From a virus, in the UHGV virus genome UHGV-0149956: 64,000 nucleotides of DNA. One strand, 5' to 3'. Shown here piece after piece: positions 7,734 to 9,006 of the stretch (position 1 is its first letter; every line of letters begins with the position of its first letter). The notes below the pieces were generated by a model. That model saw nothing but the letters and a program-made list of their open reading frames with translations. It did not search any database and was not told the DNA's origin. The translations under genes were made by a program, and so were the position numbers.

Positions 7734-8035
7734 TGCAACGGAAACTAACTAAGCGTAATAAAAATTGGTTGAGCAACATGCTGAAAAAAGCCAATCGCAA
7801 CCATATGTACCTCAACGACTGGTTATCAATTAAAGGTAATCTCAGTGATGCAAAAATGACTGACAGACATGTTGCGCGCTATGGTGTTTCACTTGTCTTA
7901 GAAAAGGCTGAATTAGTATTTTCGGAATATTATTCCATTCCGCAAATTAGCTCCAAAGGAAAAATATGTGGCTATGTGCTCAAACATAAAAGCAAGCTGG
8001 ATGAGCTTTTAGTCATGGAAAAGGAGACGCAATGA
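7733..8035 (+). CDS. hypothetical small protein downstream of ban
   Basis: ATGA overlap with ban stop; 100 aa; no motif; position matches P1 dbn as I recall it. Confidence 0.5.
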   Translation: MQRKLTKRNKNWLSNMLKKANRNHMYLNDWLSIKGNLSDAKMTDRHVARYGVSLVLEKAELVFSEYYSIPQISSKGKICGYVLKHKSKLDELLVMEKETQ

Positions 8036-9006
8036 ACATCCTGATCATTGGGCGAAAATTTGAAGCTATCAGTGATGTGAAAACATATACGGAAATGTGG
8101 GCTTATAACCTGGCCTGCGCCTTTAGTGAGGCAGGGGTAACATTGCAATACCATCGTCCATATTCCCCTGGCGTCGAAAGCCCGGAGGATTATGTTGAAG
8201 CTGTGTTGACTGCTGCGACCGCATGTTCTGCGAAGGCCATTTTGGCACCAGGATTGAGGTATTTTACTACGGTACCCAGGGAAATAGGCATGCAACTGTG
8301 TCGCCGATTCTCTGGATGGGTAGCCCAGGTATATGACGGTTCTATGCTGGATTCGGCACCAGTCGATATTACTTTTACTGTCCGCGATGATACCTGGCGG
8401 TACCTGGATAATCCCGGCAGGTTAGAGCGTCATAATCGCTTTAACAAACATGTTGGATGGGCAGCGAATCAGGAACTGTTCCATCTGGAAACCAAGACAG
8501 ACGATGTTCTGCGTATTTTTGTAGACCACGCTGCATTTGATGTTAGTGGGTTTGATCACTCCTTAAGTATCCTTATGAACCTTCAGCGTCTGACCGTTCC
8601 GTATGAGGCCAGAACGTTGACCGATGACGGATTGGTTACCATTGATCCGGGGAATATTTCGGTAACTCCATACAGACGGACGCCGGTACCAGCAACCGAA
8701 TTTGCAGCTGAATTGCGTAAGAGTGACGTTTTTATCGTTACGCATCCCGAAAGCCTTGGATTAACTGTTCTTGAGGCGGCAATGTGTGGGGCGTTGATAT
8801 TAACGCCGCCAGATTGCCTTCCGCCAGATCGCCTGGCTTTGGTGAACCATATGGTTATCAAGTCGCGGATTGATTGGGATGAGGTTATTGCTCGCGTTGA
8901 TCGCGTGAAAAATGCTGAAAAGGTCCAGTGTCACACCTGGTCGGCAATCGCGGAAAAGATGCTTGAGACGTTTATCACGCAGAAACCGTCGCGAGGTAAC
9001 GGATAA
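8032..9006 (+). CDS. GT-B glycosyltransferase-like protein
   Basis: N-terminal MNILIIGRKFE Rossmann start; C-terminal VFIVTHPESLGLTVLEAAMCGALILTPPD resembles the GT1 family E-x7-E motif; translationally coupled to preceding gene. Confidence 0.5.
   Translation: MNILIIGRKFEAISDVKTYTEMWAYNLACAFSEAGVTLQYHRPYSPGVESPEDYVEAVLTAATACSAKAILAPGLRYFTTVPREIGMQLCRRFSGWVAQVYDGSMLDSAPVDITFTVRDDTWRYLDNPGRLERHNRFNKHVGWAANQELFHLETKTDDVLRIFVDHAAFDVSGFDHSLSILMNLQRLTVPYEARTLTDDGLVTIDPGNISVTPYRRTPVPATEFAAELRKSDVFIVTHPESLGLTVLEAAMCGALILTPPDCLPPDRLALVNHMVIKSRIDWDEVIARVDRVKNAEKVQCHTWSAIAEKMLETFITQKPSRGNG

Follow-up and report, generated by a model that had tools for sequence, protein, structure and literature searches.

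What does the gene behind the helicase gene of P1-like phage-plasmids do? In the virus genome UHGV-0149956, analyzed here over a stretch of 64,000 nucleotides (the window, taken at its full length), an open reading frame (ORF) of 324 amino acids (aa) lies between the DnaB-type helicase gene ban and the baseplate gene 5. This ORF is dbn, and the genome is that of a P1-like phage-plasmid. An initial annotation of the window had taken its product for an accessory glycosyltransferase (GT) of the GT-B fold. Is Dbn such an enzyme, does it work alone, and what would it glycosylate? In summary, I found that Dbn is, on the evidence of its sequence and a structure model, a soluble, compact (324-aa), sequence-divergent GT-B glycosyltransferase resembling family GT4, and that its homologs recur beside homologs of three other P1 proteins, PmgQ, PmgO, and PmgP. 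The favored explanation, to which I give a probability of roughly 0.55, is that these four proteins form one mobile phage glycosylation cassette acting on an acceptor in the host envelope.

The gene itself is not new. By megablast, 18 phage records (P1, P7, RCS47, SJ46, JL22, and others) match positions 6300-9700 at 98% identity, and the Dbn protein encoded here is 98% identical to P1 Dbn over 324 aa. In the P1 reference record, dbn ("downstream of ban") is P1_gp078 (YP_006544), "function unknown, possible glycosyltransferase". Its P7 counterpart, glt, is called a "putative glycosyltransferase", while the RCS47 copy is a "glycosyltransferase family 4 protein" in RefSeq. Dbn also matches phrog_2518 (PHROG 2518) with an E value of 2.4e-233. 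For two decades, the P1 genome record has carried dbn as a possible glycosyltransferase; the gene call itself adds nothing. That the ORF is P1 dbn and encodes a GT-B enzyme is almost certain. What is new is the link of dbn to pmgO, pmgP, and pmgQ, by which four P1 genes that had stood as orphans become parts of one hypothesis, that of a glycosylation cassette, which can be tested. In the literature searched, there was no paper linking dbn with these three genes or giving a glycan phenotype.

The AlphaFold2 model of Dbn has a predicted local distance difference test score (pLDDT) of 95.0 and a predicted template modeling score (pTM) of 0.90. In this model, the N-terminal Rossmann-like domain has strands at residues 2-6, 37-41, 69-75, 96-101, and 113-116, and the C-terminal Rossmann-like domain at residues 160-164, 191-197, 233-235, 255-258, and 273-275. 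A cleft lies between the two domains, and the final helix (residues 303-316) returns to the N-terminal domain. This arrangement is that of the GT-B fold, as the initial annotation had supposed. The Rossmann-type N-terminus that it had read from the sequence appears in the model as beta-alpha-beta repeats (strand 2-6, helix 19-33, strand 37-41, helix 51-64, strand 69-75). The C-terminal segment that it had likened to a catalytic motif (residues 238-257, HPESLGLTVLEAAMCGALIL) contains two glutamates, E240 and E248, spaced as in the EX7E motif, and aligns with the ERESLGLMALEA segment of the glucosyltransferase 8xsg.

To what extent are these residues conserved? I gathered 74 homologs and aligned 64 of them; a second, more diverse alignment comprises 108 sequences. 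Residues D102, W143, A144, D165, H166, D175, F234, T237, H238, E240, S241, G243, E248, and G253 are invariant in the 64 sequences. In the 108 sequences, D165, H166, H238, E248, and G253 are still invariant, and E240 is at least 90% conserved. The homologs reach down to 25-30% identity with the catalytic-motif residues kept. The top structural matches of Dbn are sucrose-phosphate synthase, BshA, GlgM, and a tetrahydrobiopterin glucosyltransferase, while the best viral match is a Tupanvirus glycosyltransferase with a template modeling (TM) score of 0.79. GT4 enzymes are structurally closer to Dbn than DNA glycosyltransferases are. Dbn resembles the retaining GT-B enzymes of CAZy family GT4 (PimA, BshA, sucrose-phosphate synthase, WaaG, WaaB) in its two-domain fold, in the C-terminal helix crossing back, and in the EX7E motif, although it is only 10-14% identical to them.

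Sequence comparison alone says much less. A search of PDB sequences with Dbn gave nothing significant (the best hit, with an E value of 0.25, is spurious), the family profile searched against PDB matched only the 41 residues around EX7E, and NCBIfam gave only a partial match of 15 bits. An exhaustive search of 1.84 billion proteins with the Dbn profile found only 421 cluster representatives, of which 330 had E values of 1e-10 or lower. Judged from these searches, the family is small, closed, mostly of phage origin, and well apart from mainstream GT4. Longer family members are fused to a methyltransferase, to a second glycosyltransferase, or to unassigned regions, and give no clue to the acceptor.

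Is dbn maintained by selection? All hits of the first IMG/VR scan were P1-like, and these 80 loci served for the tests of intactness and selection. The ORF is intact and follows ban in 80 of the 80 loci; the order ban..dbn..gene 5 is found in 77, and the remaining 3 loci end before gene 5. Over 76 P1-like copies (49 alleles), the ratio of nonsynonymous to synonymous polymorphism (pN/pS) is 0.118, with a mean pS of 0.087 and a mean pN of 0.010, and 62 polymorphic codons are synonymous-only while 38 change the residue. Thus, dbn is under clear purifying selection. Among PLSDB plasmids, 451 have Dbn and 472 have the gene 5 product at 95% identity or more, and Dbn is full-length in 435 of 473 plasmid matches. 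The comparison across P1-like genomes therefore shows dbn to be near-universal in P1-type elements, yet it is not a structural gene. A role as a structural or morphogenetic protein was rejected, since dbn is dispensable and its product goes unmentioned in the main text of the paper on the P1 virion proteome. A CRISPR interference (CRISPRi) screen of P1 and a deletion library found dbn, pmgO, pmgP, and pmgQ all non-essential, and dbn dispensable for plaque formation on laboratory Escherichia coli (PMC10695390); in-frame deletion strains of all four genes are listed in the PMC9024508 supplement. The view of dbn as an accessory gene rather than a replication gene agrees with these data. The K-12 laboratory host of the essentiality screens has neither O-antigen nor capsule.

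The gene neighborhoods of Dbn homologs were then compared in 25 loci, which represent 16 non-P1 lineages after clustering at 70% identity. For this gene context, the IMG/VR scan was repeated with a distant homolog as the first sequence. A scan of contigs from cultured genomes, in which a very strict back-translated pattern was used, gave 4 loci, so that the rarity there may be overstated. In 12 of the 16 lineages, the Dbn homolog is followed by a PmgQ homolog, which begins 3-1092 bp further downstream (within 200 bp in 10 of these), and one further lineage has a PmgQ homolog elsewhere on the same element, beside PmgO/PmgP. An all-against-all comparison of the neighbors yielded three recurring families, all of which are encoded in the window at 15005-17476 (tblastn, E values from 1e-42 to 1e-83). 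A contiguous pmgO-pmgP-dbn-pmgQ array was found in a P2-like prophage contig (L162), whose Dbn homolog is 46% identical, and also in the cultured coliphage EP_H11. Only in P1-type genomes does the phosphatase gene ppp separate pmgP from pmgQ; it is absent from both contiguous arrays and is outside the conserved set.

The wider distribution also involves sugar-related genes. Large aquatic phage contigs (130-280 kb) have a Dbn homolog clustered with GT8, GT47, a sugar-nucleotidyltransferase/cupin, a polysaccharide pyruvyltransferase, and methyltransferases. Four of these contigs (L003, L005, L159, and L160) are syntenic, with a terminase, a RecA-like gene, the glycosylation cluster, and a DEAD helicase; beside a Dbn-like gene, the cluster contains one or two genes of PmgQ type and another common gene of 230-255 aa without an assigned family. 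They may belong to a large aquatic phage lineage that is reported to have several core glycosyltransferases (PMC12619734). Bacterial homologs were found in one metagenomic contig (42% identical to Dbn) and in two Brucella pseudogrignonensis loci (33-38%). In the two bacterial loci inspected with Pfam (L161 and L164), the setting is a Kps-type ATP-binding cassette (ABC) transporter polysaccharide locus with KpsM/T-like genes and a large GT1, and L161 additionally has KpsC/S and KpsD. In both, the Dbn homolog comes directly after an MptE-like gene with a weak match to the 3-deoxy-D-manno-octulosonic acid (Kdo) transferase WaaZ.

From this comparative genomics, PmgQ appears to be an obligate-looking partner of Dbn, and PmgO and PmgP seem to join in enterobacterial temperate phages. 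It is reasonably likely that Dbn forms a functional unit with PmgQ, with or without PmgO/PmgP. The initial annotation had treated Dbn as a single enzyme; the gene is real, but Dbn is more likely part of a dbn/pmgQ/pmgO/pmgP set. A broader proposal, made tentatively, is that an unrecognized conserved cassette extends from P1 to the 130-280-kb aquatic phages, with Dbn and PmgQ as its core and with PmgO/PmgP added in enterobacterial temperate phages, and that its product, on the lipopolysaccharide (LPS) core or on a phage or host protein, is an oligosaccharide of defined structure in which Kdo or another ulosonic acid may be present.

What kind of proteins are the partners? PmgO and PmgP are paralogous by alignment, and their joint profile matches the Campylobacter sialyltransferase Cst-II (1ro8; E value 2e-5), Cst-I, the flagellin transferase Maf (5mu5), and MptE. 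PmgQ is GT8-like by its fold, which is of the GT-A type. All three genes are labeled "putative morphogenetic function" in the P1 record, while their products look glycosyltransferase-like and not obviously morphogenetic. NCBIfam and PADLOC gave nothing useful for Dbn, PmgO, PmgP, or PmgQ. In all, P1 has four glycosyltransferase-like genes, which fall into three classes. Enzymes of the PmgO/PmgP type (GT42/Maf) use CMP-activated ulosonic acids, and the only such donor known in E. coli K-12 is CMP-Kdo. GT4, GT8, and GT42/WaaZ-type enzymes build the cores of LPS and lipooligosaccharide (LOS), and some protein O-glycosylation systems use them too. The outer-core sets (WaaG/WaaB of GT4, WaaO/WaaJ/LgtC of GT8, WaaZ, and Cst-II of GT42) are cytoplasmic and use nucleotide sugars, as is proposed for the P1 set. 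The P1 proteins resemble them by fold or remote profile only, and Dbn is acidic, not basic.

In the window, dbn and the pmgO-pmgP-(ppp)-pmgQ genes are on the same strand, with the inverted baseplate block between them. Are the two parts expressed together? The 17-mer operator of the C1 repressor has 15 matches in the window against 0.27 expected. The divalent operator Oban heads the ban operon, and Oppp lies ahead of pmgN-pmgO-pmgP-ppp-pmgQ; the latter has 4 mismatches to the consensus 17-mer and is hence outside the 15 scan matches. Since C1 operators precede both operons, the ban-dbn part and the pmg part should be derepressed together. In the P1 record, a late promoter, LPpmgL, also lies ahead of pmgL and the pmg operon. 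Operator matches at 212-228, 3734-3761, 13878-13894, 17502-17567, 19643-19659, 37184-37283, and 52967-52983, together with others, mark immunity-controlled operons of the window.

The proposed mechanism is as follows. The cassette is split in P1, and both parts, lying behind C1 operators, would be switched on together at induction or infection. The cytoplasmic enzymes would add sugars stepwise from nucleotide sugars to a common glycan acceptor. Dbn would perform one retaining hexosyl transfer, its C-terminal domain holding the donor and its unusually conserved N-terminal domain the acceptor. The acceptor may, speculatively, be a host envelope glycoconjugate made at the inner membrane face, above all the LPS core, and the effect would be a changed cell surface during lytic growth. 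An envelope acceptor with the LPS core as the leading candidate is proposed because the enzyme classes match, because the bacterial relatives lie in exported-polysaccharide loci, and because the LPS core is the P1 receptor. These statements differ in strength: it is highly probable that the acceptor of Dbn is a glycan or glycoconjugate and not DNA, receptor or envelope modification is plausible, and the LPS core taken specifically is doubtful. If the proposal is true, three "morphogenetic" genes would be reassigned to glycosylation, P1 would alter the receptor that it uses itself or attach glycans to proteins in lytic growth, and a widespread phage strategy of surface-glycan change or protein glycosylation would come into view. 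P1 is a workhorse phage, and single-gene deletions of all four genes exist, so that the idea is directly testable.

Several observations weigh against the proposed role, and some concern Dbn itself. The Pfam family Glycos_transf_1 (PF00534) matches Dbn with an E value of 3.7e-5 and 23.8 bits, under the cut-off of 26.4, and over profile positions 83-169 of 172, the second half only. For the N-terminal domain, neither Glyco_transf_4 nor Glyco_trans_4_4 of Pfam matched at an E value of 1 or lower. The first loop, IIGRKFEAISD, has a single glycine, and there is no GG in the family consensus; the glycine-rich loop of GT4 is absent. In canonical GT4 enzymes of the PimA type, a diphosphate-binding G-R...K follows just after the first strand of the C-terminal domain. 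After the corresponding strand 160-164, the Dbn family has the invariant D165-H166 and D175 (window 8524-8529 and 8554-8556) and not G-R...K, the equivalence being judged by the order of elements. The donor chemistry of Dbn may therefore differ from that of textbook GT4. Dbn is also acidic (isoelectric point, pI, 5.6) and has no basic N-terminal domain, unlike many lipid-acceptor GT-B enzymes, which argues weakly against a membrane-bound acceptor. Both a glycosyl transfer by Dbn and a glycan phenotype are predictions.

Others concern the cassette. In P1, dbn is not adjacent to pmgO/pmgP/pmgQ, and ppp is interposed among the latter. In three bacterial lineages with a Dbn homolog, no PmgQ was detected. 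Single deletion of any of the four genes gives no plaque defect and hence no common phenotype linking them. P1 has no glycan exporter, and no report of an LPS change in P1-infected or lysogenic cells was found in the literature searched. In plasmids, full-length PmgQ is more frequent than Dbn (about 615 vs 435), and about 180 plasmids of non-phage type retain pmgN-pmgQ but lack both dbn and gene 5. The inspected record of this kind is a P1 remnant, and on this one example the excess was set aside as a disproof of the Dbn-PmgQ pairing; by extrapolation from the same record, it is plausible that the PmgQ-only plasmids in general are P1 remnants. The record (NZ_CP080128.1, L172) is a mobilizable non-phage IncHI1B plasmid, whose positions 7000-18700 hold a P1 stretch from pmgN to pmgQ, pmgS, and pap, adjoining a type I restriction-modification system (hsdRSM) and phd/doc; dbn and the baseplate genes are missing from it.

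As for the donor site, the invariant Asp-His...Asp points to an unusual way of holding the donor, perhaps with the help of a metal, and R216 (at least 90% conserved) might stand in for the basic diphosphate-binding residues. The replacement of these residues by Asp-His...Asp is a small enzymological curiosity of the Dbn family.

Could the same enzymes serve another acceptor? Protein glycosylation, in which the Dbn/PmgQ/PmgO/PmgP set would put an O-linked glycan on a virion or host protein, is a serious rival, though I consider it unlikely. Precedents are the mycobacteriophage capsid and tail-tube, giant-virus fibrils, Maf acting on flagellin, and GtfA (GT4) with GlyE (GT8) acting on serine-rich adhesins. 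The Tupanvirus match of Dbn would fit with this, as would the position of the P1 genes, which flank the baseplate/tail block with the late promoter before the pmg operon. An acidic, soluble Dbn suits a cytoplasmic protein acceptor, and no exporter would be needed. However, the bacterial homologs lie in exported-polysaccharide loci and not in protein-glycosylation loci, and all four genes are dispensable. Two high-resolution cryo-electron microscopy studies, of the P1 head and of the tail-baseplate, mention no glycans, which is a weak point since glycans on flexible termini would be invisible, and neither glycosylation nor these proteins come up in the main text of the virion proteome paper on P1. 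It is rather improbable that Dbn works apart from the pmg genes and has a soluble metabolite or signaling molecule as its acceptor, for example with the effect of blunting a host defense or rerouting sugar metabolism. All of its top structural matches act on small acceptors (malate for BshA, glucose-1-phosphate for GlgM, besides sucrose-phosphate synthase and the tetrahydrobiopterin glucosyltransferase), Dbn is acidic and soluble, and P1 dbn stands apart from pmgO/pmgP/pmgQ; yet this would leave the repeated PmgQ adjacency (12 of 16 lineages) and the two contiguous four-gene cassettes without explanation, and PADLOC gave no match.

The initial annotation had also named DNA glycosylation as a possible role, by which Dbn would add a sugar to a modified base of the phage DNA and so evade restriction. 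Models for this are the T4 alpha- and beta-glucosyltransferases (GT72 and GT63), which like Dbn have the GT-B fold and are phage-encoded, non-essential accessory enzymes, and the arabinosyl-hydroxycytosine systems. The position of dbn after a replicative helicase gene, and of the aquatic-phage cluster between RecA-like and helicase/primase genes, would agree with such a role. The bases of P1 DNA are ordinary; standard restriction enzymes map and cut it, and for protection P1 relies on the Dar proteins and methylation. According to PMC13326640, the known cases of DNA glycosylation in phages depend on a thymidylate-synthase homolog, which supplies a hydroxymethyl- or hydroxy-pyrimidine. When all frames of the 64-kb window were scanned for motifs, a ThyA signature (D..LG.PFN or R[SG].D..LG) was not found, and there was no Thymidylat_synt match in the genes called up to 10 kb away from five Dbn homologs. 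The GT4 enzymes are nearer in structure than the DNA transferases, the GT8 and sialyltransferase/Maf-type partners and the pyruvyl- and methyltransferases of related clusters are those of glycan chemistry, and the bacterial homologs lie in capsule-type loci. DNA glycosylation is thus disfavored and seems very improbable. Least probable of all is that dbn is a decaying or inactive passenger carried along with ban. In favor of this are its dispensability in the laboratory, the premature stop of the P7 copy with its annotation from an internal Met, and the Pfam score under the cut-off. A remnant would hardly show a pN/pS of 0.118 over 49 alleles, stay intact in all of the 80 loci, be full-length in 435 of 473 plasmid matches, keep its catalytic-motif residues invariant down to 25-30% identity, and give so confident a structure model; the idea of a pseudogene was rejected because of the strong purifying selection.

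The glycosylation cassette with an envelope acceptor has a functional analogy in the Gtr prophage systems (GtrA/GtrB/GtrC), in which a temperate phage changes the surface polysaccharide and blocks adsorption. The parts differ: Gtr consists of a membrane flippase, a GT2 bactoprenol glucosyltransferase, and a periplasm-acting GT-C enzyme, whereas the P1 set consists of soluble GT-B, GT-A, and MptE-like proteins. Gtr-type membrane partners were found neither near dbn (its neighbors are ban, a 100-aa ORF, and baseplate genes) nor near the pmg genes. Gtr-type seroconversion was rejected as involving the wrong enzyme classes.

The features of the locus are collected in Table 1. The initial annotation had seen dbn as appended to a ban helicase operon, and the gene at 6363..7733 is indeed of the DnaB type and is P1 ban. 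The start codon of dbn overlaps with the stop codon of a 100-aa ORF as ATGA, and the start codon of this ORF overlaps with the stop codon of ban as TAATG, so that the coupling described in the initial annotation stands. A Shine-Dalgarno sequence, AAGGAG, lies 7 nucleotides 5' of the dbn ATG. On the other side, the convergent gene 5 starts a baseplate/tail block at 9054-13805, and the bidirectional terminator supposed to lie between the two is found as a hairpin with an 11-bp stem, a 5-nucleotide loop, an A-run on one side, and a T-run on the other. Its energy is -17.6 (centroid) to -19.9 kcal/mol (z = -3.31; 1 of 200 shuffles was equally stable). A consensus terminator scan did not detect this hairpin because its T-run is absorbed into the stem. 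A promoter scan found 2 sigma-70-like sites against 4.8 in shuffles; therefore, the "Pdbn" internal promoters predicted in the P1 record are without independent support. The ban operon, which is repressed by C1, has dbn as its last gene and ends at the bidirectional hairpin. P1 Dbn and P7 Glt share the place between ban and gene 5, the terminator region, and the annotation as a putative glycosyltransferase.

Table 1. Coordinates of dbn, its candidate partner genes, and the flanking and regulatory features in the window.
Feature	Position	Strand	Description	Basis
dbn (P7 glt)	8032..9006	+	divergent GT-B, GT4-like glycosyltransferase (predicted), 324 aa, ATG start	
Dbn residues 238-257 HPESLGLTVLEAAMCGALIL	8743..8802	+	EX7E motif from E240 (8749-8751) to E248 (8773-8775)	
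pmgO	14942..15604	+	GT42/Maf/MptE-like putative CMP-ulosonic-acid transferase	Pfam MptE-like, E 5.7e-5, under cut-off
pmgP	15502..16128	+	pmgO paralog, MptE-like	Pfam MptE-like, E 3.2e-4
ppp	16110..16802	+	Ser/Thr metallophosphatase	Pfam Metallophos, E 1e-15
pmgQ	16799..17500	+	GT-A, GT8-like glycosyltransferase (predicted), DxD-containing; most conserved Dbn partner	
ban	6363..7733	+	DnaB-like replicative helicase, upstream operon gene	Pfam DnaB_C, E 1.1e-107; DnaB, E 2.8e-35; named ban in P1 and P7
100-aa ORF	7733..8035	+	between ban and dbn, coupled to both	phrog_12809, E 2.7e-45
P1 gene 5	9054..9686	-	baseplate hub/spike	Pfam Phage_base_V (baseplate-spike OB domain); P1 annotation
Hairpin	9028..9054		intrinsic-terminator-like, bidirectional, between dbn and gene 5	folding
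Oban (former Op72a/b; Obanab in P1 record)	3734..3761		divalent C1 operator heading the ban operon	exact and 2-mismatch 17-mer matches
Oppp (former Op83)	14785..14801	-	C1 operator ahead of pmgN-pmgO-pmgP-ppp-pmgQ	P1 record; sequence conserved here

A more distant element has a different arrangement. In a D6-like phage-plasmid (CP057059.1, L170/L171), the gene 5 product is about 48% identical, and neither ban nor dbn lies beside the gene. Dbn, PmgO, PmgP, and PmgQ are all absent within the 74 of 93 kb examined, and this joint absence speaks for the cassette. An rdgC gene and a Dam methylase gene occupy the place of ban-dbn beside the gene 5 homolog, and Ppp is kept (85% identity).

The annotated starts of dbn also differ among the records. 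The P1 record (NC_005856, L001 4434-4457) begins dbn 8 codons (MQWNEEKP) before the Met common to all aligned homologs. The upstream ATG used for P1 dbn is the start of the 100-aa ORF here (7733), while dbn of the window starts at the family-conserved Met (8032). Since every homolog in the family alignment begins at the later Met, the P1 start has probably been annotated too early. In P7 glt (AF503408, about 2990-3000, corresponding to window 8098-8100), TGG has changed to TGA at W23 in the numbering of the window, and because of this stop the gene is annotated from an internal Met. A protein made from there would lose the first strand and helix of the fold. The P7 copy is either inactivated or affected by a sequencing error.

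The 100-aa ORF is another difference from P1. About 275 bp between ban and dbn, lacking in all 18 phage records, take the place of 18 bp of P1 and create this ORF. Its GC content is 0.38 against 0.485 in the surroundings, and its product is basic (pI 9.8). It is carried by 13 of the 80 P1-like IMG/VR loci, 52 of 438 P1-like plasmids, and 0 of the 18 phage records, so that the phrog_12809 ORF occurs in about 12-16% of P1-like elements. Remote relatives with 33-38% identity are found in unrelated coliphages and in a Cronobacter phage.

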